Shown here: positions 134 to 44,957 of the stretch, piece after piece
How positions within the stretch are numbered: position 1 is the first letter of the stretch
Layout: each line of letters starts with the position of its first letter
Assembly: GCA_944323665.1 (NCBI GenBank)
Contig: CALUTN010000183.1
Span: forward strand, 2,619 to 66,618
Direction of reading: 5' to 3'
DNA length: 64,000 nt
Origin: Candidatus Gastranaerophilales bacterium
GTDB taxonomy: Bacteria; Cyanobacteriota; Vampirovibrionia; Gastranaerophilales; Gastranaerophilaceae
The notes under the pieces: model-generated
Database searches by the model: none
Told to the model about the DNA's origin: nothing
The model's input: only the letters and a program-made list of their open reading frames with translations
Position numbers and translations under genes: made by a program

Positions 134-1708
134 TATTAAGCCCCTCCCATGACTGCTATATTGTTTACAATAGAAACCTAGTAAGTTTTATTATTGTCTA
201 CTAAACTGTCTCCTATCCACTTCACTGTTTCAGGTAATGTTAGCACTGTAGGAGTATCACCACTAGTGAATTCAAACATATATTCATTATATATATTAGG
301 TATCTCTGAACCCAGAGTGATGTTTAAAGAAGAAACTTCTCCAAATTTATATAATTTATTAGGTTCTATAGTTTTCGTAACTTCTCCCGATTCTGAAGAT
401 ATAGTACTTATAGCATCAGCCTTATTATTAATTACTTCCTATATAGTTTCAACCTCACTATAGTTAGTCCCATCATATCCTCCTACATTAACTACATAAA
501 AGTCTCCATTTTTCATTATCTCTATAGCATTTTTCTATTTAGAACTTTCCCAATTATTGAAATATCGAGTTCCATTACCTATAGAAAATAATGTTTTTTG
601 ATTATCCGCACTTCCAGTATTAGATTTATTAGAAATTCCAAAAGCAGATTCTCCAAAATTAGTAGCAATGGTTTGCCAGTTAAATGCACAAGTATTATCC
701 TAAATGGCTATACATCTACAACCTACTGCTATACTAGCACCATCTACAAAAGTTACAGGTACTGATAGACAGCCCCATCCTACTATAGAGCACTATTCAG
801 CTCTTCCCGATCCTATAGCTAATGACCATTGATCAGCATAACCTCCTACTTCTGCAGAATAATCATTAAAATCAGTATATGGATTTAACGTTTCTGATAC
901 TGTTATAGTTTCATTTTCTGGATCTATAGAAGTTACTACAGCATAGTATTGTTTAGTATCTTCACTATCTTCACTAATCTTATCTTTGCTCTTAATTATT
1001 CTATTTGAAAAATACTATGTAGGACAATTCCTCATCATCCAATAACCAGAACTACCATTAGAAACCACTTTATAAGTAGTACTATTCTTTATACCAGTAA
1101 GATAAAGGTTACTTAATAAATTATTCCCGATTAATATTGAGTTAGATTTTGAAACTCCTATCTATCCTTTTAATCCAGTAGAAAATCCATAACTTTCTTT
1201 ATTACCTATTGATATATACTCGTGATCAGTATCCTCTGATATAAAATCTATTAAATCCTATTTCTAGTTTAAAGCTTCTTGAGTCGCAGTAGAAATAGGT
1301 TTATCTAAATCAGAAGTATTATCTACATTTTCCAATCCAACCTAAGCTTTAGTAACATTATGTGGGTTATTATTATCTAATATATGTGAATTTAACTCAG
1401 ATTTTTTAGAATATGTAGTATTTATCTAGTTTCCATCAGAATCATATTTTGCTTTAAATTCATAGTTTTTACCATGAATTTGCATATTTTTAATTGTATC
1501 CATTAATTTATAATTAAATTCTCTTCTATTACTGCATGAGTATCTATATTATTTTTTACTTCTTCTAACTAATCTTTTGTAGCATAATTTTCTAATACAC
1601 TTTCATCTATTTCTCCAGATGAAATCTATCCTTTTATTACTTTAATTGGAATAGTAGCTTTTCTAAATCCATCCTATAAATATATTACTCCCATAATGTA
1701 TAAATTTA

Positions 1709-4285
1709 TTAACTTTCAGTTTCATCATCTATATTCCATCCAGCCTATCTATAATACTATAAGCTAGTAGAACTGTCTGTAATCTAAGTAGAATAAATAC
1801 TATAATTAGGTGAAGATAACTAAGAAATAGATCCAGTAGCTTTAGGCAATATCATGGTTCTAGCAATAACATTATCAGCTTCTCCTCCTAAATTTCCTAT
1901 TATTTTCATAACTACATCAGAAGTATTAGATAATTTAATGTTTTTAGCATCAAATCCAGATGAAAATAAATTTCCTTTTACAACCTAAATATAGTTACTA
2001 GCAAACATATTATTCATATTTAACTATGTAAAATAAGTTGGATCTAATCCTAATATTAACTAATTGTCTCCAAGTTTTCCTATAAAATTAAACTACTATG
2101 CTACATCTTCTGGTAAAATATGTCCTATAGCAGCCCATCTATTGATTCCTGCAAAAGCATTCTATAGTGATGAGGTAATCTAAGGAATAGAATCTTGTAA
2201 TAACACAAGTGAATAATTTACTACCTATTCATCTCCAAAAGATGAGTCCTATAATACTATATATTCTGAGTTAAAAGCATTATCTAATATACCATAACTA
2301 GTATATGAAGAAGGATAATGGACATATACATTATATGTAGTATTTTCCTATTTCCAACTTTTAACAAGTTGAGGTATTATAGTCTATCCTTTCCATAAAT
2401 TAGTACACTTTACAGTCTTACTATTTTTAAATATATTCTTAGGTATAATTCCATTTAATGCTGTTTTACAAGCTAAAGCAGCCTAAACTCCATAAGACAA
2501 GTCATACTCACTAGTGGTAGAAATATTTGCTTTTAGTCCGTAGAATAAATCTGGAGGAATAATCAATCTATTAGCATCACCATTAATTGATGGGTTAGTA
2601 ATAGATGTTCCTTGTATATTTGCTACATATCCACCTTGTAAGTTCTCTGCATCAGTTACTTCTGTGACCTATTCTAAAGTATGCTATGTATAAACATAAT
2701 TAGGTTCTTCATCTGAAGATATTAAAGTTCTAGTATAATACTCAGTATATTCTTCATCTAAAGAATCTACAACTCTAGCTTTCTTAATGGAATATAAAGC
2801 AGGATTATATTGAAGACATTCTTGAGTCCATTCACAATTTTCAAATAAGAAAGACATGTCATACATTACTTGACTATAATTATAATTATAGAATGTAGCA
2901 GGTTCATAATTATCTTCTTTCTTTATCCATACACTTTCTATAACTTCATTTCTCTTTTTAAACATATCAAATGGAATAGCTACTCCAAACTTACAACCTC
3001 TAAACATTCCCATTACATTTTCCAGTGATGGAATCGTTCTACAGAAATTAGTATCCATCATTAAGTTATTAGAACTAGAAGCTTCTAAAGTAGTTTTGTT
3101 CTAGAAATCATTAAAAGCTAAGGCTGCTTTTTTAATCCTTGAATTTACAGTACTTCCAAAAGTCCATGTTCCAAGAGAACCTACTACAGTTACATTTCTA
3201 AATATAGTATTTATACTAGTTAAGGATTTTGATTTTAAAATCTTCTCACATAGAATACTATAATTTTCAGCAGAAATATATTTAGCACAAGCGTTACATT
3301 TAGTATTATAATGTAAATTATAATCCATTTTAAATATCTCACTCTGATTAACTAACTTATCCCAATTATACATATTAAAATAATCAGCTGTCTAATCAGT
3401 TAGAGTTGATTTATTCCAAGATTCACTTATTGAGATAACATTAGGAAGCTGTTTACATAAGTTTTCATATCCTTTGTATTTACTTTGTTCAGGACATACA
3501 TAACTCATACTAGATAACTTAACCCAAGCAGCTGTAAAAGTATTAGTCCAATCTAATGTATACTAACTAGTAGTCTATATATATCTTAAACTAATTAATT
3601 TTGTAGGAGATTGTCCACCAGGGTTTAAGAACTCTGACATCTTTATATCACTATCAGAAGATAGTATTTCTCCAGAACTGTCTACAAAAGTAATATGAGT
3701 TACTCCTCCATTATAAGATCCAAAAGGTAAATAAGTAACTTTAGTTATAGTTCCTTGAAATAAATCTATCGGAACATACAAAATACTGAGAGAATCTTTA
3801 GTACAAAAAGCCTAATCATAATTACATCCTTCAGTAGATCCTAACTACATAAAGTTCTTATTAATAGCATTTACTCCTGTATTCTGAGGATTATAAAATA
3901 AGTAAGATGCATTAGTAACTTTAGATAATTTACCAAAATTTGGGTAAGAACTTTCTGATATACTAGTTTTCAAATCCTCTAAGCTAAATACTGCAAGAGT
4001 ACAATATGCAAACATATACGAAATATTAGTAATAGAGTTTTCTATTGGTATAATATTATCAATAATATGTTTTACTTCTTTCCAAGTATTATTATAAAGT
4101 TTATAGTATTTATCTTCATCTATAACATAACATAACATTCCTGACTTTCTTCTCTTGGTTGGAATATTATCTCTATCAGAGACTGACTATACACTATAAA
4201 CACCTCCTCTAACATTATTAGAATCAATTAATGCAAAGTCCTAATTATTCTTTTGTACAATTTCACTAATTAATTCAATTGCCAT
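1709..4285 (-). CDS. Tail fibre / receptor-binding-like protein with BspA-type leucine-rich repeats, about 858 aa, TAG-recoded with about 25 in-frame TAG codons
   Basis: Track fragments 2684..3061, 3101..3373, 3575..3781 and 3845..4138 share one frame. Hand scan of that frame from 4285 down to 1709 finds TAG but no TAA or TGA until the TAA at 1709-1711. The first TAA upstream is at 4298. Repeats of the type SYMFAYCTLAVFS and VMGMFRGCKFG resemble BspA-like LRRs. Confidence 0.5.
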
Positions 4286-5242
4286 ATTATTGTATAGTTA
4301 TTGTAGTTCTACCTAAATTATCATTATCACTTCTATATACTCTGTAACGAGTAAACGTCTATGTATTATATCTATCTATTACTACATTATCATCTAACAA
4401 AGTAAATCCTCCAGAGAAACCATTTACTACAAACTCAGCTTCTCCATATGAATATGGAATACAAATAAATATATAATTTCCTACAGAATTAGAATCTACT
4501 GTAATTGTAGTTTTTCTAGAACTCTATAATAAACGTGATAATGATATTATCTAGGACTCATTAATAGTCTCCTAATTTAAACTTCCATAATATATTCCTG
4601 GATAAAATCTAAGAGAAGCAGAAGATTTCTATACTGTATAACCATCATTTACTTCTAATTCTTTAGTAATAGTATTCTTAAATTCTCCCTATATTGTAAT
4701 CGTTCGTAAAGAGTTATCTATTAATTCCCCATCAAATTTTTGATATTTAATGTTAGATACATTATATGTCCAGTTATACACTATAGAAGTTACTAACTCT
4801 CCTAGTTCTTTTATATTCGGATTACATATAAAAGTAATAGTTAGATCTTTTCTTAAAATATAATCTAAAGCATCCTAAAGTGTTTTAATATTTTCATATT
4901 CTGGATTATGATATATTATTTGAGATATAGCAGAATCTCCATCTAATATTTCTTTATCTACTTTATTATTCTATAGAGCTATGAGTATATCATATAAATC
5001 TTTTTGATTCTATAAATAACCATTAATAGATCCCCAATTTATTTCAGTAGAAGAAATTCCAAGATTTTCTCTAGCTTTTGCTTTTTCAGATTCTGTTTTA
5101 AACTCAGATAGATAATTCTTTTTTAATAGGGCATCATTATTGCATTCTACTATATTAACAGTAACATTATCACATTCATGTTTAATATCTTCTTCATTTT
5201 TTGGAAACAATAGATTATCAGATCTGGTGTCGCCTATTAAAT

Positions 5243-6028
5243 TCATAATAAATTACGATTTAAATAAAATTCTATAATAAAATTTTTGTTTTCTAAATAA
5301 GAATATATTTCTAATAAACTTATTTCTTCTAAGATTAATTCATAGTTTATATTCTTTCCTTTAGACAAATTATCTATTAAAATGTTATAATCATCTATAA
5401 TTTTTCTTTTTAAGTCATTAATTACACCCACAACTATTTATTTTATCAGTTACATATGATTTACAGAATCCTCCACATCTATTTATTTTTTCTAATATTC
5501 TCTAAGATTCTTTCATCTAATTAAATTCTACATTATATTTTATAATATTTAGAGTCATCCATAAAATATCTCTTTTAAATGTAAGATCAGTGTCTAAATT
5601 ATTACATCTATATTAACTTCTGTTAAATTATTATTGATATAATGATATATATTAATTCCATCTGTAACATATATATTAATAGGATATAAAGTAAGATTAT
5701 CCTCTTTTTCTAGTTCTTTATTTAACCAATCTAAAGTTGGGAGTATAAAATGATGTATAGTATAATATCCGTCTTTTTTTAATTTATACTCTATTTCATC
5801 TATTTCAGAAGTATGATCATTAATTATAGTATCTTCTATATTAGACTACTAAATAGAATTATACTAAATAATATTTATGGTCATAGTTTCACTATATTTA
5901 AATTTATTATTCTAATTATGAATTAGAGTATCTTCTATATCTTCTGGTATATATTCATTAGAATCCTGAGTTAAATCCTAGATTTTAATTATGTCTCCTT
6001 TTCCACAAATTTCAACTATGGGTTTCAT
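5243..6028 (-). CDS. TAG-recoded late gene (MKPIVEICGKGDIIKIQDLTQDSNEYIPEDIEDT...); 3' end not resolved and may extend further down
   Basis: ATG at 6026-6028 overlaps the stop of the upstream gene (TAATG). In-frame TAG codons are present. Track fragment 5243..5431 is in the same frame. Confidence 0.3.
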
Positions 6029-7002
6029 TATAATTGTCTTATTTTATCATTATATGGATTTCCATCTCTTAGTTGAGATAATTCTATATCAGTTCTTTTT
6101 TCTTCTATATCTAATTGTCTATCTCTGTAAGTTCTATCAGTCTAAGCTTTAAACCAATTTACCTAATATTCAAGATTTATTTTTTGCTACTCTAACTACA
6201 TTTTATATTCATCTAATTGCTTTATTTTTTGTTCAGCTTTAGAAAGATTCTACTATAACTCCTATGCCTATTGGGAAGTTTCCTCTAATTTAACTTGTAA
6301 TTGCTAAAGTTGATTATTTTCTTCTTTTTGTATCTATAAAGCCTTTTTTACTTTATATTTTAAATCAGTCATACTTTTGGCAGTTAAAGCTTCTAGTATT
6401 ATATCTGGAGTAACCTAATTACTTTTAATGAATTCAGGAATTATAGATTTTATTGTCTACATATCTTCCATAACCTATGTACTAGATATTATATGTATGT
6501 CATAATCAGTTAAAGTAAAATATTCAGGTAAAGCAGTAAATATTTGCTAATACTTATCTCCTAATATTATTGTACCAGTTAAACCTTTTTTATAAGTGAT
6601 TTTTGCTTGATTTAAACTATCTAATAATATTTCACAAGAGACTAAATCCATCTACTAAAAATAATGTTTAGTAACTATAAATGAATTGGCTACTCCCTAT
6701 TTTATGTTTGTTACTGCATCTCTCTACTCTATTCCATTTAGTCTTTCTCTAAATACTCCAGTAATAGAAGATGTAGTCTATTCCACTGACTATATTGCTA
6801 ATTCTATAGCCTATATAGCCTAAGCTTTTAAAGTATCGTCAAAGCCATTAAAGATAGTATTTAATGGAGCGTTTCCATTATCATTTCTACCTTCTTGAGA
6901 ACTATCTACCCACATTATACCTGTTTTCTTATAGGCTAACCATTTTTCTACTCTCTCAGGCCATTTTACTCCTAAATTTGTCGGTAATAAAGACATATCC
7001 AT
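6028..7002 (-). CDS. TAG-recoded late (structural?) protein, about 324 aa, Gln-rich if TAG=Q
   Basis: Frame of track ORF 6820..7002 followed by hand. There are 20+ in-frame TAGs and the first TAA is at 6028-6030. Q-rich context such as KAQAIQAIELAIQSVEQ. Confidence 0.45.
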
Positions 7003-7063
7003 TATTACTCCAGAAGTTCCACTATTAGCTACTAAAGAATCTCTATAATAATTTAAAAGATCA

Positions 7064-8014
7064 TATCGTATTATCTTCCATCTGAGTCGTTAATTCAGAA
7101 GCGTTCTCTAATGAACTGCTCTAGTTTTCACTAGAAGTTGAGACTATATCATATTTTATATTTTCTAATATTGTTGGTAACAATTCGTTAGTAAATGTTT
7201 CAGTAGAAGAATTATATTCCCATTTATTAGGTTTATATAAGTTAGGTCTAATAATTTTTTTTAATTTAGTTTCAAACTCTTTACATTGTAAAGCATCTTC
7301 AAAAGTATGAATAAATATAACTTCTATATTATATCCTAATGCTTTATATTCTCTAAATCTTCTTACCTTACCATTATCAGTAATATAAGATACTCCTAAT
7401 TTATAAAAACTTTCATTTTCATTAAAAAGTTTTATTAAATAAAAAGTATTAGATTTTTCCCAAAATTTATTACATTCTGGACATCCAGATCCTAAAAATA
7501 TAGAATCAGAATCTACAGATTGTTTACCATGAATAGGACATATTAGAGTAACTCTCCCTTTATGTCTATCTGTGGAATCTACTTCAAAATCGTACTTATT
7601 ATTATATAAAAATAATAATTGATTTTTAAAATATTCTTTTCTATTTACTGCAGTTCTTATAGTAGGTATATGTCCATGAATTAAATTGTCAGGATTTACA
7701 CTAACTAATCCATATTTAGTATTAAATAACATTTTTTGTTTCATTGTTACATATTCTGAAGCAGGAGTAACTAATTCAGCTATTTTAGGCTATTCGATTT
7801 TAAGCATTCCCATAAAATATTCTGTTTTATTTAAAGCCATTTTAATAGTAGGTTTACCTCTAAAAATAGCTCCTGCTTTTGGAATACTCAATATTCCATA
7901 TTTATCTTCTACTAAAATAGGAAAATTTAAACCTTTAAATTTACTAACTACTTTTAATTCACCTTTATATTCTTCGGTTACTTTCTTTTTAAATTCTTCT
8001 TCGTTAAGTTTCAT
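7064..8014 (-). CDS. T5orf172 / GIY-YIG-superfamily-like putative homing endonuclease, with one in-frame TAG at 7790 joining track ORFs 7790..8014 and 7121..7744
   Basis: The two track ORFs are in the same frame, separated only by TAG plus 15 codons. C-terminal pattern FYLIKL..FYKLGVS...RRFREYKALGYNIEVIFIHTF. The N-terminal half contains a duplicated segment (PTIKMALNKTEYF and PTIRTAVNRKEYF). The end is either the TAG at 7121 or the TGA at 7061. Confidence 0.45.
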
Positions 8015-8245
8015 AACTACTTTTATTTTTAATTAAACAATAAAATTATATAAAATTCCCGCACTTCGAACCACTTGGTTCTACATAATAGTCGTTGAGC
8101 CTTCAATTAAGCTTGGCTGCTGATTGTCCAATCTTATCCTTGTTCATCATTTCATTTACATGAAACTATAGATAAGCTCTAAGGAGTTTCCAGCAATTCA
8201 CGGGATTTAAACAGGACCGATATATTAATCCTGTAGATGAGCACA

Positions 8246-9364
8246 TTTAAGTATTAAAGAATAGGGCTATTGAGACCTATTTAAAAAATAAACTCCATTA
8301 ATTGATAATGAACAATAATTTGGATTATCTTTAGATCTTATTACATTTTTATCTTCTCCTCTAAGTATAAACATATCTTCCCCTATTCTAATAGTACTGT
8401 ATCTTCTCATTATGAAATTATCATCAGTTTCTAACCACTCAATTTCATAAACTGGTATTAATTGAAATCTTGTAGAACTATATTCATTATCTGGATATCC
8501 AGGAATAGTCTCATTAGTTTCTTTTCCATCATTTACAGTAATGCATGAATCAGCTGTAAAAACCCTTTGATATATAGCAGCCCCATCACTATCATACCAA
8601 TCATCTTTTAATTGCTATAAGTCTTTTTTAGATAGTTCTTTTCCATATTTTGCTAATATTTGATTTTTTGTTAACCAATGTCTTACCACAGATCTATATG
8701 AATTTTTAACATATGGAGATTCTGGATTTCTATCTATAAAAGTGTTTAATGGATTTAATACTTCTATCTCTATATTAGAACCACTAGAAGACTATTTCAC
8801 TTTAAAGAAAGTATATCCTGTTATTAATAAATCAGTTAAGAGCTACCTTAGTTTTGTTATTAAATCTGTTTCTCTGGATTGCAATATATACTAAACAATA
8901 TACTATGCTGCTATTTCAAATTGGGATATAAATGATTGATCTATTTCCTGTACTATTTTATCTAGCTAATCCTTTATTGTTTTATCTGTTATATCTTTTC
9001 CATCTATAAATCTTAAAATAGAATTGTTTAAATGAGCTTTTAAAAAATTAACAACTCCTTCTAATATTTTTAATTGCTTCTCTCTGGTAATACTAGATAT
9101 AGTTTCAGAATCTTTACAAGATATTTTTGGAAGTATCGGAGTTCCTAAATATTCTCCAACTAATGCATCAATATGTTTTTTTAATAAAGGTGTAAATTCT
9201 ACTGATGTTGGACTTCCTATTCCAAAATTCTCTTCTAAATATTTATACTATTCTGGATCTCTTTTTCCATTATAATAATTGTAAGCTTTTTGAAGTTCCC
9301 ATTTATTGTATACTAATTCAGAGATAGCTTTATTAGTTTTATCAATAAGTTCTTTGTCTGTCAT
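8246..9364 (-). CDS. TAG-recoded protein downstream of terminase, tentatively portal-like; N-terminus MTDKELIDKTNKAISELVYNKWELQKAYNYYNGKRD...
   Basis: ATG at 9362-9364. Frame followed by hand through at least 10 TAG codons to the TAA at 8246-8248. Position after TerL and the YNYYNGK motif suggest portal, but at about 372 aa it is short for a portal protein. Confidence 0.35.
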
Positions 9365-9584
9365 TACATAAATTTATATATTCTGGAGGAAGTTTAGTTG
9401 CACCAAAGTATTTAACTCTTTGAAGTTTTCTTTTTCTTAATTCCTCTTTAATAAAGGGTAGAAATTCTTCATCTGGTAAATCAGCAATAATAACCAATGG
9501 CATTTCTGATCTGTCAAAATTAAACGATACTTTATAACCAATCGGATTTAATGGTAATATTTCAATACCTCCTATATATTCCAT
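9342..9584 (-). CDS. Hypothetical 80-aa protein (no TAG)
   Basis: Track ORF. Overlaps the TerL 3' end and the start of the portal-like gene. Confidence 0.3.
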   Translation of the reverse strand: MEYIGGIEILPLNPIGYKVSFNFDRSEMPLVIIADLPDEEFLPFIKEELRKRKLQRVKYFGATKLPPEYINLCNDRQRTY

Positions 9585-11919
9585 CTAATATAGTTCTCTA
9601 ATGTAATCTAGGATCACTTGTTTCAATTCCGTAGTTGTCATTATAATTTTCTCTAGATATATTAATTTGTATATACTATTTCTTCGGTATAACACCATGT
9701 CTTATATAACCTTTTTCATCTCTATAATATCCAAAATCCTAAAATTCTTCTTGTTCCTTTATTACAGTGGTGGGCTGTCTTCCAGATAGTTCTTGGTCAG
9801 CTAATTCTGTCATACCCATTGCTGCTATAATATCAAACTTACCTTTATTTTCATCATTATAACCAGTAAGCTAATCTAGCATTTCTTCAAACCATATAGT
9901 ATGACAATAATCTTCTACAAAATTAGCAGTTAAGTCAGTATGTAGTTCTATTATAAGTTTAGTAGCAGGAGTTCCATACTATTTAGTAGTACCGTTTTTA
10001 ATATCAGTTAGTGTAGCTCTTGGACGTTTCATAAAATATTGTAATCCTTTATTTTCTTTGGCCCAAGTAACCATACCCATACGAGTAGCTTCTATATTTA
10101 TTTTGCAATTATAGTATCTAGCTAAACACATAGCTATTTTATATGCTTCTCTAATATTTCCTGGTCTATCCTTATACATAGCAACATACTATGGATCATT
10201 AAGTCCAAATGCTCTCTTTTTAATTGTTATACAAAATTCAGAAGGATCTCTAGTTTCTTTAGAAGTCTGATTAGCACCAATATCAATTCCGTCTATTCCA
10301 GCTACATATAAATCATTCATTTCTTTGTATACTGGAATATTAAATTCCTCACCTTTTTCCTCTGCTTCCTATTTTAATTTAAGCATTTTTTCCTAATATA
10401 ATTCTGACCAGATTGGATGCTCCAGTATTTTAACTTTTCCATTTTGGTTCGGAATCCATTTAAATCCTGATATATTTTCTAAAGAATGCTAATTATTTTT
10501 ATAGTAATAATCTATTATTCCAGATTCTGGTCTAGGACCTTGTTTATGAAGTCTAATAATTGCTAACTAATTAGCAATATTAATTTTATTAAATTTATTT
10601 ACTCCTTCAAGATTAAAGGCTTCCTCAGCATTCCAGCATCTTTCGGCGCACTTCTTTAGATATTCTTCTGGTACTGCTAATAAATTATCTCTTTCTTCCT
10701 AAAGAAATTTTTTATATTCATCAATATTACAAACCCCTCTATTATCCATAAATTCTGGATTTAGTGACTATAGAAAATAAGGAATAAAAAAACCACTTTC
10801 TATTGTAGTCCCATCCTAAGTCCAATTATGTCTAAAAGGTAGTATCTTAAATGATCTGGGATTATAATATATTTTTTTAAGACCTTCTAATGGTGCTCCC
10901 ATATCTCCTCCTGTTCCACCAAATAGCATTGTACCTCTAGGAACACCCTGTACTTCACATAATTCCTATCCTTGTACAACTGCAGTAGTAAGTCCTGGCC
11001 ATGAACCTGCTTCATCATATATTAATAAATCAACACGATCACCACGAATATTGGATGGTTTAGAACCGTTAATAGCTAAAACTTCTGATTGAAATCCTAT
11101 ATCTTCAAACTAACCATCTACCTTTATCTATTTTCCAGACTTTTTTCTTAAATCTTGATCTATAAGTCTTCTTTTAAAGAATCCTCCTCCAGTACAAGTA
11201 TTTAAAAAAGTTAAAGCATGATCAAATTTATTGAATGTACCTTTTAAGAAAGTGTCATTGAAGCAAGTAATCATTACTCTACTTTTTCTAATTACTGAAT
11301 ACATTCTTGCAGATAAAGAAGCATTTATTTCAGAAAAACCAATTGAACGAGCTTTCATTAAAGCAGCATGTTTATGAAGAACCCTTGCCATCTATAAATA
11401 ATGAAAGAACATGTAATGAGAAGCAAAAAATATAGGAAAGTCATCATTAGTTCCAGAACCAGAAGCCTAGTTAGCATCAATAGTAGGTAACTAATAAAAG
11501 TTTAAGAAAAAATAGTTATCTCCAGTTATAGTATAACCATTAACTGTCATTCCATATTTACATCTTCTATATTGCTCTTTCCAAAATTCGTTATATCTTT
11601 TACTATCTTTTAAGTAGGGGCAATACTTTCCAGTTTTCTTATATATTTCTCTAGTTTCAGTAAACCAATTAGGATTAAAATCTAATCCATGGGTTTTATC
11701 AATTGGTTTATATCCAGTTAATTCGTATGATAATGTAGGATCAAATACATCTATTTTTTCGTCTTTTTTTACATCCCAATAGTCTGGATCTTTAGATCTT
11801 TCTTCTCTTAATTTCTATATTACTTCTCTTGTTTCCTTTATATCTTTTTCGTGTTCTTCTTTCTTTATCTAATCTATTATTTCTTGTACTTCAGATACTA
11901 TTTTCTTTTTTCTTCCCAT
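9562..11919 (-). CDS. terL: Terminase large subunit, TAG-recoded (about 785 aa; more than 10 in-frame TAG)
   Basis: Hand translation joins track ORFs 11128..11391 and 9979..10179 plus the intervening segments in one frame. Motifs include ...YGMTVNGYTITGDNYFF..., ...NTCTGGGFFKRRLIDQD... and ...VDLLIYDEAGSWPGLTTAVVQG(Q)ELCEVQGVPRGTMLFGGTGGDMGAPLEG... The gene ends with TGA at 9562-9564 and starts with the ATG at 11917-11919. Confidence 0.6.
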
Positions 11920-11921
11920 AA

Positions 11922-12483
11922 TTAAAAATCTCCTGGGTCAAATCCATCTTCTCCTCCACCTCTTATAGTAGACTGTTCAGTAAGTTCTTTTTTAACTTCA
12001 TTTTCTAAAGTAACCAATTCCTCATGTACTTTATGTAATTGAGCCATTTCTTTCATTACTTTTTCAGCCTAAAAAATAGGTTTACCGTTATTATCTCTCT
12101 CATTTAAATCTACTATAGTATCAAAATAATCTATAAACTAATCTGCAGCTCTTTTAGCTGCTTCTAATAATTTTATAGATTTATTGGAATCCTATAAAGA
12201 TCTATATTTTCTACAAGCTTCTCTAAATATAGGATCATTAAATTCCTATTCAGTTAAACCGGAATCACTTAAAGCTTCTTCATGCCTTTCTTGTTCTGTA
12301 TATTGATTATAAGGACTCTTCCAATCTATAGCTAGATAAATATAAGATAACTCTCTTTCTAATCTTTTCTTAGATTTAGTATTATCTCTCTATAGAAGAT
12401 TTTTGAATTCTTTAACCAGTAAAATTTCCGGTTCATTAATTTCTAGGCTTTTAGTCAAAGAATTAAAATTAAAGATATTCATA
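11922..12483 (-). CDS. Terminase small-subunit-like protein, TAG-recoded (about 186 aa)
   Basis: ATG at 12481-12483. Several in-frame TAGs. The TAA stop is 5 nt upstream of the TerL ATG. Assigned by position; no motif recognised. Confidence 0.35.
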
Positions 12484-18577: not shown

Positions 18578-18928
18578 TTATTTAATATGTATATCAGTAA
18601 TTCGTTCATAATCTTTATAGTCTTTAATGTAAGAATTTTCTAAATTTGGGTATATACTTGTAATAGTATATCCAGTTTTTGGATTTTTAAAATAATATAA
18701 TTTTATCTCGTTTTCATTTTTCTCAACTTCTGGGTTTATGACTTTATTCCAATGGTTATATCTTTCATCTAATTTTGACATATTATTATCAAATTCCCAT
18801 TCTTCTAATATTTTTATTGGTTGAGATTCTTTCTTTAATTTTTTCTCTATGTTATTAGTTTTACATAGAGTATCATTTTTTAGATAAATTGCTGCTTTCA
18901 TTTTAAAATAATTTTGTAGTCGGGGCAC
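18578..18928 (-). CDS. Hypothetical protein (116 aa). Its 5' end overlaps the 3' end of the suppressor tRNA by about 9 nt.
   Basis: Track ORF with TAA stop. Confidence 0.35.
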   Translation of the reverse strand: MPRLQNYFKMKAAIYLKNDTLCKTNNIEKKLKKESQPIKILEEWEFDNNMSKLDERYNHWNKVINPEVEKNENEIKLYYFKNPKTGYTITSIYPNLENSYIKDYKDYERITDIHIK

Positions 18929-18993
18929 TGGGACTCGAACCCAGAACTTCTGATTTAGAGTCAGACCCGTTGACCAATTACGACCATACCCCA
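18920..18993 (-). tRNA. Amber suppressor tRNA, anticodon CUA (reads UAG), with a tRNA-Gln-like body
   Basis: Hand fold of the minus-strand sequence TGGGGTATGG...TCTGA-CTCTAAA-TCAGA...CTGGG-TTCGAGT-CCCAG-TGCCCCG-A. The acceptor has 7 bp (2 G-U). The T-arm is perfect. The anticodon loop is C-T-CTA-A-A. The 5' UGGGGUAU and the weak 1-72 pair resemble E. coli tRNA-Gln and its supE derivative. Confidence 0.75.
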
Positions 18994-20479: not shown

Positions 20480-21290
20480 CTCTAAGATATTATGAGTGTA
20501 AATAAAATATCCATATGAACTCCATCATTGGAATCTTGGTTAACGGAGAAAACAAAAAACAAAAAAAATTTTCTGAGAATATTTATTAAAGTTTTAGTTT
20601 TTATATCTGACAGTACGGAAAGACGTGCATTAAAATAAAAAATCATATTTGTAGAACTCGAAATATGTGGAATGGGTATAGAATTGGTGCACAAAAGCCA
20701 ACCCCAATTTTCCACATTTTTCAAAAATTAAAAAATTTCCTCTAAGTAGGTATTATATAGTACCAACTTTTTAGGGAATTATTATGACACTAAATTAAAA
20801 TAATAATTAAAATCGCCAGGCTACGCAGATAAGCCTATACCCGAAAATAACTGCTGCTTACAAAATTTTCAGATTTTGAAGCCAGAATCTCACATGAGAT
20901 TTTGTACGAGTAATATGTGTATATTCGCAAACTTAAACACTATATTATGAGGGTTGAGTCTATTTATACTGGTCAAAAATAGACAATATAAAAACTTCCA
21001 GTGAGGAAGTCTGCTAACGTGCCAGGAGACCAATGCACGTTAATTATAAAATTAGAAATTTATGTAAATTAGAAGTTGCCAAGTATAAGCCGCTTGATTG
21101 GTATAAACCGAAGGCTAGATAGTAAGAGAGAAGTTCATAAGACTTCATTTTCCATCTCGAATCTATTCGCAAGTTTATAGATTAGCTACCTATATTCTTA
21201 GTGAACGTTGATAACGTCCTCAGCATGGAAAACTGAGAAATAATCTCCTATCTTATTCTAGATATGTAAGATAGGATTTTCTCTATCAGT
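20480..21290. ncRNA. Candidate large structured non-coding RNA (about 800 nt, ORF-free, GC-enriched)
   Basis: No ORF of 60 aa or more in any frame apart from antisense or AT-junk ORFs. GC is noticeably higher than in flanking intergenic DNA. Short complementary and repeated motifs are present. See the findings. Confidence 0.3.
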
Positions 21291-22419: not shown

Positions 22420-22716
22420 ATGATTCAAAAGCGTATTGAACATTGTGAGAAACAACTAGAAGAACATCTTCATGAAGCTAATTCTATATGTGAAGGTCAA
22501 ATAGTTGTTTGGAATGGCGGACATTTTTCTGTACCTGTATGGAATCATCTTAAACGTGCTCTCGAACAAGATATTAAAGATTGGAATGCTCTTATTTGGG
22601 AACAAGTTATTAGACAAATGGGACGAGAAGATAAACACTTTGAACCTATTCTGTGGGATATAGCATCAGAATGTTGTTTGTGTCAATCTCAAGGAATAAT
22701 ATCAGAACTCGACTAG
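22420..22716 (+). CDS. Hypothetical protein (98 aa)
   Basis: Track ORF. Confidence 0.4.
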   Translation: MIQKRIEHCEKQLEEHLHEANSICEGQIVVWNGGHFSVPVWNHLKRALEQDIKDWNALIWEQVIRQMGREDKHFEPILWDIASECCLCQSQGIISELD

Positions 22717-22801
22717 ACGAGTATAAACAGGCATTAGGTCTAGTGCGTCAAGTGGGGAGAAATCCTCACTTGGGTTGTATTAATTATTAAACTAAATAAA
22801 A

Positions 22802-27025: not shown

Positions 27026-27060
27026 GCCCCGATGGTGAAAGTGGTAGACACGTCAGATTT
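27026..27060 (+). tRNA. tRNA-Leu(UAA) exon 1 (acceptor, D-arm, anticodon stem 5' strand plus U32-U34)
   Basis: GCCCCGA-TG-GTG-AAAGTGGTAGA-CAC-G-TCAGA-TTT | intron. Confidence 0.6.
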
Positions 27061-27876
27061 AGAAAAAGAAATGTTCTTTTTATTAATCTATTTTAACAGA
27101 ATTTTATAGGAAGTCACAAATTTTTATTATATCTTTGTGTATATAAAAATATACATAATGAGTAAAAGAAAATGGACTGATGAACAACTGATTAAGGCTG
27201 TTAAAACTAGTTTATCTTATGCAGAAGTAATGAGAAAATTAGGACTTAAAGCAGCTGGCAGTAACTATGATACTGTTAAGAAAAAGATTAAAGAATATAA
27301 TTTAGATACTTCACATATGACTGGTAAAGTTTGGAATCAAGGAGAACGATACAAGCCAGTTAAAACTTCCAGACCTTTAGAAGAAGTTTTAGTAGAAAAC
27401 TCTACATGGGTAAATACTAATAATTTACGTAAAAGACTTCTTAAGGAAGGTATCAAGGAATATAAATGTGAGTGTTGTGGCAGGACAGAGTGGTTAGGAA
27501 AACCTATAGCTCTAGAACTGCATCATGTAAATGGTATAAAAGACGATTTAAGGATAGAAAATTTACAACTTCTGTGTCCTAATTGTCATGCCTTTACTGA
27601 TAATTATAGAGGAAAGAACAAGGGTATGGATGCCCAAGAGGAAACTCTTGGAGTAGAAGCAGGCTAATTCGGTGAAGGTATCAGCCCTATAAATGGTAAT
27701 AACGCCGAGCTAAGTTAAAAAGAATAAGATAACAAGAACCTCTGTTAAGCTAGAACGTAGCTTCATACGGATGAACTTACTTCTTTTTATAAATGTGTAG
27801 AGACTATACACCTGCAACCTAAGTCAGAATTGATATGGTTAAGACATAGTCCAAGCAATCTTTTATAGATTGTATG
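27061..27876 (+). mobile_element. Group I intron inserted between U34 and A35 of tRNA-Leu(UAA). It carries an HNH homing endonuclease ORF.
   Basis: The 5' exon ends in U and the intron ends in G (omega-G). The exons reconstitute a class-II tRNA (loop TTTAAGC). Intron core GTGTAGAGACTATACACCTG...ACCTAAG closely resembles the P7/R region of the Azoarcus pre-tRNA-Ile group I intron (TGTAGAGACTAGACGG...CACCTAAGG). Confidence 0.6.
27137..27667 (+). CDS. HNH homing endonuclease (176 aa) encoded within the tRNA-Leu group I intron
   Basis: ...CECCGRTEWLGKPIALELHHVNGIKDDLRIENLQLLCPNCHAFTDNYRGKNK... is a canonical HNH motif. No TAG. Confidence 0.65.
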   Translation: MYIKIYIMSKRKWTDEQLIKAVKTSLSYAEVMRKLGLKAAGSNYDTVKKKIKEYNLDTSHMTGKVWNQGERYKPVKTSRPLEEVLVENSTWVNTNNLRKRLLKEGIKEYKCECCGRTEWLGKPIALELHHVNGIKDDLRIENLQLLCPNCHAFTDNYRGKNKGMDAQEETLGVEAG

Positions 27877-27927
27877 AAGCTCTGATGGCCAGTAATGGCC
27901 GTGTGGGTTCGAGTCCCACTCGGGGTA
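27877..27927 (+). tRNA. tRNA-Leu(UAA) exon 2 (A35-A36, anticodon stem 3' strand, long variable arm, T-arm, acceptor 3' strand)
   Basis: AAGC-TCTGA-TGGCCAGTAATGGCCG-T-GTGGG-TTCGAGT-CCCAC-TCGGGGT-A. Confidence 0.6.
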
Positions 27928-40245: not shown

Positions 40246-40318
40246 GGGCCGTTAGCATAAATGGATAATGCACTAGATTTGCAATCTGGAAGATAGAGTT
40301 CGAGTCTCTGCGTGTCCA
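40246..40318 (+). pseudogene. tRNA-Ala(UGC)-like gene with a largely non-complementary acceptor stem
   Basis: D-arm GCAT-AAATGGATA-ATGC. Anticodon stem CTAGA/TCTGG with loop TTTGCAA. T-arm TAGAG-TTCGAGT-CTCTG. The 5' GGGCCGT versus 3' CGTGTCC gives only 4 of 7 pairs. Confidence 0.35.
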
Positions 40319-44870: not shown

Positions 44871-44957
44871 GGCATAGTGGCGCAACTGGTTGAGACGCAC
44901 TAGACTTAGGATCTAGAAGAAGAAATTCTTGTATGGGTTCGAATCCCATCTATGCCA
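44871..44957 (+). tRNA. tRNA-Leu(UAG)
   Basis: Class II tRNA. Acceptor GGCATAG/CTATGCC is perfect. Anticodon stem CTAGA/TCTAG with loop CTTAGGA. Variable arm AAGAA...TTCTT. T-arm ATGGG-TTCGAAT-CCCAT. Confidence 0.7.

Follow-up and report, generated by a model that had tools for sequence, protein, structure and literature searches.

A probable mobile group I intron with an HNH endonuclease gene in a phage tRNA-Leu(UAA) gene

The split tRNA-Leu(UAA) gene

The window analysed here is a stretch of 64,000 nucleotides (nt) of contig CALUTN010000183.1 (assembly GCA_944323665.1, Candidatus Gastranaerophilales bacterium; positions 2,619 to 66,618 of the forward strand), and all coordinates below are those of the window. 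Two of its segments, 27026-27060 and 27877-27927, yield an 86-nt class II tRNA-Leu(UAA) when they are joined and submitted to ARAGORN. Between them lies an insert of 816 nt, 27061-27876, which is preceded by a U, has G as its last base and contains an open reading frame (ORF) for an HNH homing endonuclease. The data presented below make it very probable that this phage tRNA gene is interrupted between U34 and A35 by a mobile, self-splicing group I intron, with the HNH gene placed in the loop of the P1 helix. The features of the locus are collected in Table 1.

The joined tRNA, in which CCA is not encoded, can be aligned from end to end with the uninterrupted tRNA-Leu(UAA) of the crAss-like phage cr108_1 and with that of the gut phage contig MT836666, and the joined junction, CAGATTTAAGCTCTGA, has the same letters as the uninterrupted gene of MT836666. 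The exact 18-nt junction is present, uninterrupted, in 52 contigs of IMG/VR. These comparisons uphold the exon coordinates and the site of interruption that had been proposed in an earlier note on this DNA. An anticodon stem of UCAGA and UCUGA is retained by the exons, and Zaug et al. reportedly found in 1993 that the exon anticodon stem stays paired in the precursor. With default ARAGORN and the Rfam tRNA model, 12-14 tRNAs are called in the window, none of them at 27026-27927. The earlier note had pointed out that a complete tRNA-Leu nearby would mark the two halves as unrelated fragments. No uninterrupted tRNA-Leu(UAA) was found in the window by these two tools, and the sole Leu tRNA that they call is a tRNA-Leu(UAG) at 44871.

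The first base of the intron and the first base of the 3' exon are both A, which leaves the register of the insert formally ambiguous. If the 5' cut were placed after U27058 or U27059, the intron would end in A or U. Only one register has U at position -1 and G at the intron end, with the 5' cut between U27060 and A27061 and the 3' cut between G27876 and A27877. This register was chosen because group I splicing requires a U before the 5' cut and a terminal G, and it confirms that an 816-nt insert begins after U34 and ends in G. The spliced junction expected from this model is GTCAGATTT joined to AAGCTCTGA, which may also be written as ...GUCAGAUUU joined to AAGCUCUGA. In its intron mode ARAGORN reports a register that is 3 bases off, a shift made possible by the first base that intron and 3' exon have in common. 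It places the intron after position 38 and reads the anticodon as UAG; the insert so defined ends in G (G27879) but has A27063 at -1.

Table 1. Features of the interrupted tRNA-Leu(UAA) gene (window coordinates; "double changes" are changes on both sides of a pair among the aligned introns)
Feature	Position	Strand	Basis or remark
5' exon of tRNA-Leu(UAA)	27026-27060	+	Acceptor strand, D arm, anticodon-stem 5' strand, loop U32 U33 U34; ARAGORN on joined exons, alignment with uninterrupted phage genes
P1 5' strand, exon AUUU	27057-27060	+	U27060 in U·G wobble at 5' splice site
Group I intron, 816 nt, between U34 and A35	27061-27876	+	RF00028, E = 5e-9; profile of relatives, E = 7e-36; covariation, 25 introns
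L1 (P1 loop): leader and most of HNH gene	27061-27627	+	Homology: guide and P2 follow the ORF in the subfamily
Predicted L1-closing long-range helix, 5' strand	27072-27081	+	Pairs with 27611-27620
A/U-rich hairpin, core stem TGTATAT / ATATACA	27136-27157	+	Ends at start codon; read from sequence
HNH homing endonuclease gene	27158-27667	+	ATG 27158, 169 amino acids (aa); Pfam HNH, phrog_10822
Predicted L1-closing helix, 3' strand	27611-27620	+	Within codons for RGKN
Internal guide sequence GGAU, P1 3' strand	27628-27631	+	Aligned with GAGU of relatives having exon ACUU
P2 hairpin CAAGAG-GAAA-CUCUUG	27635-27650	+	Double changes at 6/6 pairs; minimum free energy (MFE) fold
J2/3	GAGUAGAA	+	
P3 5' strand GCAGG	27659-27663	+	Pairs with 27811-27815; 100% of cells paired, 5/5 pairs compensatory
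P4	27669-27674 with 27703-27708	+	98% paired; MFE fold; encloses P5
P5	27679-27683 with 27694-27698	+	Double changes at 5/5 pairs; MFE fold
P6 (GC with GU)	27709-27710 with 27795-27796 (region 27709-27796)	+	Two proximal pairs, 96% paired
P6a, long extension with inner hairpin	27716-27728 with 27776-27789	+	MFE fold; variable among relatives
J6/7 GUAGA, P7 5' strand, J7/3, P3 3' strand CCUGC (27811-27815)	27797-27815	+	
P7 GACUAU with AUAGUC (pseudoknot)	27802-27807 with 27846-27851	+	Five P7 pairs invariant
P8 with 11-nt GAAA-tetraloop receptor	27816-27840	+	CCUAAG 27818-27823 and UAUGG 27834-27838; conserved columns, compensatory flanking pairs
P9 hairpin CAAUCU-UUUAU-AGAUUG	27856-27872	+	Different hairpin sequence at the same place in each relative; double changes at 6/6 pairs
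Tail UAUG with terminal G (omega G) at 3' splice site	27876	+	Invariant column
3' exon	27877-27927	+	A35 A36 G37 C38, anticodon-stem 3' strand, long variable arm, T arm, acceptor strand, discriminator A

The ribozyme core and the endonuclease gene

When a 1-kb region was searched with the Rfam group I model RF00028, a match to the full model was obtained at 27618-27872 with E = 5e-9 and a score of 41.7 bits. The local search thus provides the significant covariance-model match that had been anticipated, but the score is below the Rfam gathering score of 50 and the match is absent from scans of the whole window. Independent evidence for a group I intron was sought for these reasons. A degenerate pattern derived from the J6/7-P7-P3-P8 segment was scanned in IMG/VR and found in at least 120 contigs; the split genes at the matches were located using ARAGORN with long introns allowed, after which the registers were checked by eye. 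Most of the matches proved to be tRNA-Leu genes of class II with the split in the same position (GACUU, then an intron ending in G, then AAAAUC), with intron lengths from 195 to about 975 nt among the matches listed. Some other split genes with this core pattern are assigned by ARAGORN to tRNA-Arg(UCU), tRNA-Met(CAU) and tRNA-Ser(CGA). Two further loci (L096, L116; locus labels are ours) appear to be tRNA-Leu(UAG), and another two (L058, L077) look like tRNA-Leu(CAA), in which the base before the cut is C and not U.

An alignment (A2) was then assembled from 25 introns, including that of the window, and comprised the exon end, everything from the guide sequence to the last base of the intron, and the beginning of the 3' exon. 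The proposed structure was written on the window sequence and scored over this alignment, the controls being the same pairs with their 3' partners slid by 1-3 columns. Standard pairs are present in 90.5% of the cells, compared with 34-41% in the slid controls, and changes on both sides of a pair occur at 30 of the 48 pairs. By no measure of pairing or covariation were the observed values equalled in any of 500 shuffles. In P2, P5 and P9 every pair has changed on both sides, and in P4 and P8 two pairs each have done so. The window retains all 48 of the columns that are invariant across the aligned introns, including GUAGAGACUA, AUAGUCC and the receptor, and the segment GTAGAGACTA at 27797-27815 is invariant in all 25. 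An nhmmer profile of the alignment finds a single match in the window, at 27631-27854, with E = 7e-36, and a plain MFE fold of 27628-27876 recovers P2, P3, P4, P5, P6a, P8 and P9 (z = -3.9 relative to shuffles). The assignment of the insert to group I is therefore sustained by the U·G pair at the 5' splice site, the terminal G, helices P1 to P9 and covariation.

The pairing of the 5' exon with the guide sequence deserves comment. U27060 pairs with G27628 at the cut, and a U·G pair is found at this position in 25 of 25 introns, as the earlier note had suggested should be checked. Exon ACUU is matched by guide GAGU in 23 relatives, AUUU by GGAU in the window, and the 98%-identical intron of L006 has a GAAU guide. 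The exon/guide pair at -3, C-G in 23 introns, has thus been exchanged for U-A in the window and in L006 by compensatory change, and the difference between the guides of the window (GGA) and L006 (GAA) keeps the pairing with UUU. By homology and covariation, P1 is formed by exon AUUU and the guide GGAU just before P2. The core as a whole is compact. It has neither P2.1 nor P5abc, and sequence and alignment place a GAAA loop on P2 and a receptor in P8, so that by these features the intron is of the small tRNA-intron type and IC3-like. CCUAAG...UAUGG is the 11-nt receptor motif for a GAAA loop, and the partner of the P8 receptor is presumably the GAAA loop of P2. An 'ACCTAAG' element to which the earlier note had drawn attention as part of the catalytic core is the 5' half of this receptor.

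The HNH gene lies in a frame that is open from 27137 to 27667. A length of 176 aa had been given for the product, a figure that counts from GTG 27137; its homologues begin at MSKRKW, and for this reason ATG 27158 is the likely start and a protein of 169 aa the most likely product. The identification as an intron-borne HNH ORF stands, with 27.5 bits for PF01844 (cut-off 21.4) and 6e-51 for phrog_10822. The beta-beta-alpha-metal motif of HNH nucleases, HH...N...H, is flanked by two Cys pairs, and relatives share the conserved pattern CECC...HH..N...CPNCH. For the N-terminal region no more than weak, helix-turn-helix-like matches were obtained. The stretch 27118-27155, which overlaps the A/U-rich hairpin before the start codon, is about 90-92% identical in L127, L128 and L130. 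A scan for promoters and terminators around the gene found sites no more frequently than in shuffles, the T arm itself excepted.

Since most of the ORF precedes the guide sequence and P2, both in the window and in twelve relatives (among them L143, L131 and L176), the gene is assigned by homology to the P1 loop, which is 567 nt long, and its 3' end overlaps the core. The final 13 codons of the gene, DAQEETLGVEAG together with the stop, coincide with the guide sequence, P2, J2/3 and P3; the TAA stop itself (27665-27667) falls in J3/4. The same C-terminal tail is found in L143, L176 and L131, and the overlap with the core is therefore taken to be ancestral to the subfamily. We considered the idea that the guide change from GAG to GGA had destroyed a TGA stop and thereby lengthened the ORF; it was rejected, as this TGA is out of frame and the same tail occurs in those three relatives. 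The ends of the long loop may be held together by a helix between 27072-27081 and 27611-27620, predicted to close L1. It has 10 base pairs (bp) in the window, 11 in L006 and 13 in L143, the differences being compensatory both in L143, where GUUCUUACC faces GGUAAGAAC, and in L006.

The ratio of nonsynonymous to synonymous substitution rates (dN/dS) is 0.11-0.12 in comparisons with intact relatives that are 76-81% identical in protein, and the window copy has no internal stop. On this sequence evidence the endonuclease gene is intact and under purifying selection. In the intron-borne HNH ORFs of L176, L131, L133 and L134 there are in-frame TAG codons, several of them, though not all, at positions where the window has Gln, an observation that fits recoding of TAG to Gln in those phages.

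Taken together, these features suggest how the element would work. After transcription, the ends of the long P1 loop would pair and bring the splice site to the guide sequence; the ribozyme would then bind guanosine, cut after U27060 and join the exons, releasing the phage tRNA-Leu(UAA). In a co-infection with related phages, the HNH protein would cut their uninterrupted tRNA-Leu(UAA) genes close to the anticodon region, and repair from the intron-bearing copy would allow the intron to spread by homing. Ribosomes that finish the ORF would have to traverse the guide sequence, P2 and P3, and because of this, translation and ribozyme folding are probably mutually exclusive on the same transcript.

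Alternative readings, relatives and mobility

Several points weigh against an active, mobile intron. In addition to the modest RF00028 score and the silence of the whole-window scans, P1 is weak in the window, with 4 pairs of which 2 are G·U. The loop of P9 is UUUAU and not GNRA, so that a tertiary contact typical of small tRNA introns, that of a GNRA loop on P9 with P5, is missing, and no P10 pairing was seen in the window copy. A GNRA loop on P9 is also lacking in most of the closest subfamily, where only L131 has GAAA; GAAA is found in the more typical phage copies. A sequence search of the PDB with the HNH protein returned nothing significant and no recognisable relative among solved structures. 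Decay of the HNH gene does occur in the family, as the copies in L143 and L145 are frameshifted and that in L131 is without its N-terminus. The similarity of the 52 uninterrupted alleles to the window is confined to the tRNA, and none of them proved to be an intron-less allele that shares its flanking DNA. Finally, splicing and DNA cleavage are deduced from sequence comparison.

Some of these points would be explained if the intron had decayed to a ribozyme incapable of splicing, leaving the tRNA gene as a pseudogene and at most the endonuclease gene functional. The score beneath the gathering threshold, the two G·U pairs of P1, the P9 loop and the record of decay among relatives, which extends from damaged HNH genes to a truncated copy (L141, in a further contig) and loci devoid of a ribozyme, are all in line with such a fate. 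But the window keeps all of the invariant columns and all helices pair, the guide difference between the window and L006 preserves the pairing with UUU, and copies that are 98% identical persist in several large contigs. Moreover, the gene is the only tRNA-Leu(UAA) in the window. We therefore regard decay as unlikely.

A second alternative accepts the intron but takes GAAUUU at 27097-27102, upstream of the ORF, as the guide, which would put the ORF between P1 and P2 or in the P2 loop. A helix of 6 bp is indeed possible between this segment and exon AGAUUU, U27060·G27097 being its pair at the splice site. It is not conserved in L143 or in other relatives, and this candidate was rejected in favour of the aligned guide directly before P2, which is present in 24 relatives and at which the window has changed in compensation with exon position -3. 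The introns without an ORF are instructive in this regard. In L009, which shares P4 and P5 with the window, and in L174 and L175, which share its distinctive 3' end, the guide is found just before P2 with only a short loop upstream of it. An upstream guide is thus very improbable. It is scarcely credible that two unrelated tRNA fragments flank a free-standing HNH gene, or that a protein-spliced intron lies at the default position where ARAGORN puts it in a tRNA-Leu(UAG), since in that register the cut would follow an A and not a U, the halves enclose a complete group I core with covariation, the joined halves restore the exact sequence of uninterrupted homologues, and the window already has its separate tRNA-Leu(UAG).

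An interrupted tRNA-Leu(UAA) gene with a mobile group I intron remains the preferred reading. Copies that are 98% identical, exons included, are found in IMG/VR contigs of 188,828, 191,833 and 270,378 bp and in one 186,052-bp contig. The latter (L172, DXLM01000001.1) was deposited as a metagenome-assembled genome of Bacteroides sp. and encodes an HNH protein 99% identical to that of the window, while the identity of the intron DNA is about 98%; the contig probably represents a phage genome that was binned as a bacterium. The 270,378-bp contig (IMGVR_UViG_3300045988_069849; L214 and L124/L100) has both an intron-bearing gene and an uninterrupted tRNA-Leu(UAA) with an identical anticodon arm, and two related phages may have been joined in it through chimeric or concatenated assembly.

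At nearly all loci the HNH relatives are situated inside, directly upstream or directly downstream of a tRNA-Leu gene, and four arrangements can be distinguished. In the first, the HNH gene is in L1 of the intron, as in the window. In the second (L146-149, L174, L175), a free-standing HNH gene, with 50-70% aa identity, is directly downstream of a tRNA-Leu(UAA) that has an ORF-less intron of 199-221 nt at the same site (L174:2107-2962, L175, L146-149:2180-2950). In the third (L126-130, L134-139, L173), the HNH gene and an intact, different tRNA-Leu(UAA), complete and about 10-15 nt downstream of it, lie between disrupted tRNA-Leu halves, and there is no ribozyme. These HNH proteins are the closest non-identical relatives (76-81% aa), and in L129 (2394-3119) the leader before the ORF and the last intron bases (AGATGTAT) are still recognisable. 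The impression is that a spare tRNA gene has taken the place of the ribozyme core. In the fourth (L154-163), a more distant HNH relative (40-45% aa) resides in P6 of tRNA-Leu(UAA) introns, the gene occupying 2501-2938 with the core split around it. The endonuclease gene is found both in L1 and in P6 and must therefore have entered the intron at two or more places. In addition, a Hymenobacter isolate genome (L179) has an HNH relative directly upstream of an intact tRNA-Leu(UAA).

This constant association is the principal, though indirect, ground for taking the tRNA-Leu gene to be the target of the nuclease, and the arrangements fit homing into it; intron-bearing and intron-less alleles of the target both exist. 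As a tentative interpretation, which we regard as a real possibility rather than a conclusion, the HNH family may be a selfish element that has specialised on phage tRNA-Leu and that neutralises its own insertion either by ribozyme splicing or by supplying a replacement tRNA-Leu(UAA). Together with the free-standing and P6 copies, these loci might then record the whole life cycle of a mobile intron, and the endonuclease may serve as a weapon against co-infecting phages with the uninterrupted gene. In any case, the related loci provide a natural series for the entry of an endonuclease gene into a mobile intron and the exit of a ribozyme from it.

Phage context and comparison with known introns

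The + strand of the window bears phage replication genes (exonuclease, helicases, primase) and NAD-salvage genes, and the window has a large tRNA cluster and DNA matches to Crassvirales. Yutin et al. described a large, intron-rich group of crAss-like phages in which introns were reported in protein-coding genes only (PMC7886860). The Crassvirales matches and the close copies in contigs of 186-192 kb fit membership in this group. When TAG is read as a sense codon, seven long ORFs of 321-862 codons, all in one direction, open up in the interval 139-11937 on the - strand, none of which exists with the standard code, and an amber suppressor tRNA with anticodon CUA is encoded at 18919-18993 (-); part of the window phage seems to use TAG recoding. 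Three other RNAs were noted on the + strand, a RAGATH-14 RNA at 21071-21249 (159.3 bits, above the gathering score of 149.1), a Pistol self-cleaving ribozyme at 22707-22779 (64 bits, above 34.5) and an Rfam tRNA at 40246-40318 (39 bits) that ARAGORN does not report.

The earlier note held that such an intron is uncommon in a phage. This view has to be abandoned, since at least 120 viral contigs in addition to the window carry group I introns within genes for tRNAs, above all in tRNA-Leu(UAA), and the element is scarce only in the literature that we searched. According to a 2014 review, every phage intron then known was in a protein-coding gene, which was considered a puzzle in view of the many tRNA genes of phages (PMC3984707). 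A preprint of 2018, devoted to Lak phages, called introns in the tRNAs of phages previously unreported and described short introns of unknown type (10.1101/356790). In the literature searched, which lacked most subscription journals, no account of a group I intron in the tRNA gene of a phage was found. A blastn search of GenBank phage records with the core of the window intron gave no match; a typical ORF-less phage copy had full-length matches only in unannotated huge-phage records of GenBank and a partial one in Agrobacterium phage Atu_ph07. The type of element is therefore a known one, and what is notable is that it forms a large, phage-borne family, undescribed in the literature searched, with a P1-loop ORF that overlaps the core.

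This has a practical consequence. Because standard tRNA finders miss genes split in this way, such phages appear to be without a tRNA that they in fact encode, and both tRNA inventories and arguments from codon usage are distorted.

The window intron invites comparison first with the classical tRNA-Leu(UAA) intron of cyanobacteria and plastids. The two are in the same host gene and at the same site, between positions 34 and 35, which is the tRNA-Leu site of a recent survey (PMC13011429), as had been claimed. As this is the site of the ancient intron, phages are candidate vehicles for moving it between bacterial lineages. The two introns also have in common a small core, a short P1 and a U·G pair at the cut. 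Compared by description only, the classical intron is about 250 nt long and has no ORF, whereas the window intron has its 567-nt P1 loop with the HNH gene and a long extension of P6, a simple P9 that lacks a GNRA loop, and the combination of exon UUU and guide GGA where the classical intron has CUU and GAG. Many of the ORF-less phage copies (e.g. L022, L025) resemble the classical type.

The tRNA-Ile intron of Azoarcus, of class IC3, presumably provides a parallel for the architecture of the core; we take it to have a GAAA loop on P2 that docks into an 11-nt receptor in P8, and a J6/7-P7 segment nearly the same as that of the window. The Azoarcus intron differs in its tRNA and insertion site, is not known to carry an ORF and has a GNRA loop on P9. 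Bonocora and Shub are said to have reported in 2001 that the tRNA-fMet intron of Synechocystis encodes the endonuclease I-Ssp6803I. That intron is in another tRNA and at another site, 33/34, and its nuclease is of the PD-(D/E)XK family and not HNH.

The survey just mentioned, published in 2026, covered complete bacterial genomes and recorded 333 group I introns of tRNA genes, few of which encoded an endonuclease (PMC13011429). PD-(D/E)XK endonucleases in tRNA-fMet introns at 33/34 are among these, and HNH genes in tRNA-Leu(UAA) introns of Bacteroidota form another category (PMC13011429). The latter, again compared by description only, have the same tRNA, the same PF01844 family and a phylum that hosts crAss-like phages, but they come from bacterial genomes, whereas the window intron comes from a phage genome.

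Finally, the window intron may be set beside the phage group I introns that carry homing endonucleases. These too are phage-borne and mobile, with ORFs that extend into the core and need controlled translation (PMC3984707, PMC6083498); those of the 2014 review are all in protein-coding genes, whereas the window intron is in a tRNA gene (PMC3984707). In collaborative homing, a free-standing endonuclease acts together with an ORF-less intron, and this partnership has been proposed as the precursor of composite mobile introns (PMC3984707, PMC6083498). The layout of L146-149, L174 and L175, with a free-standing HNH gene next to an intron-bearing tRNA-Leu, is the arrangement that collaborative homing would lead one to expect (PMC3984707).

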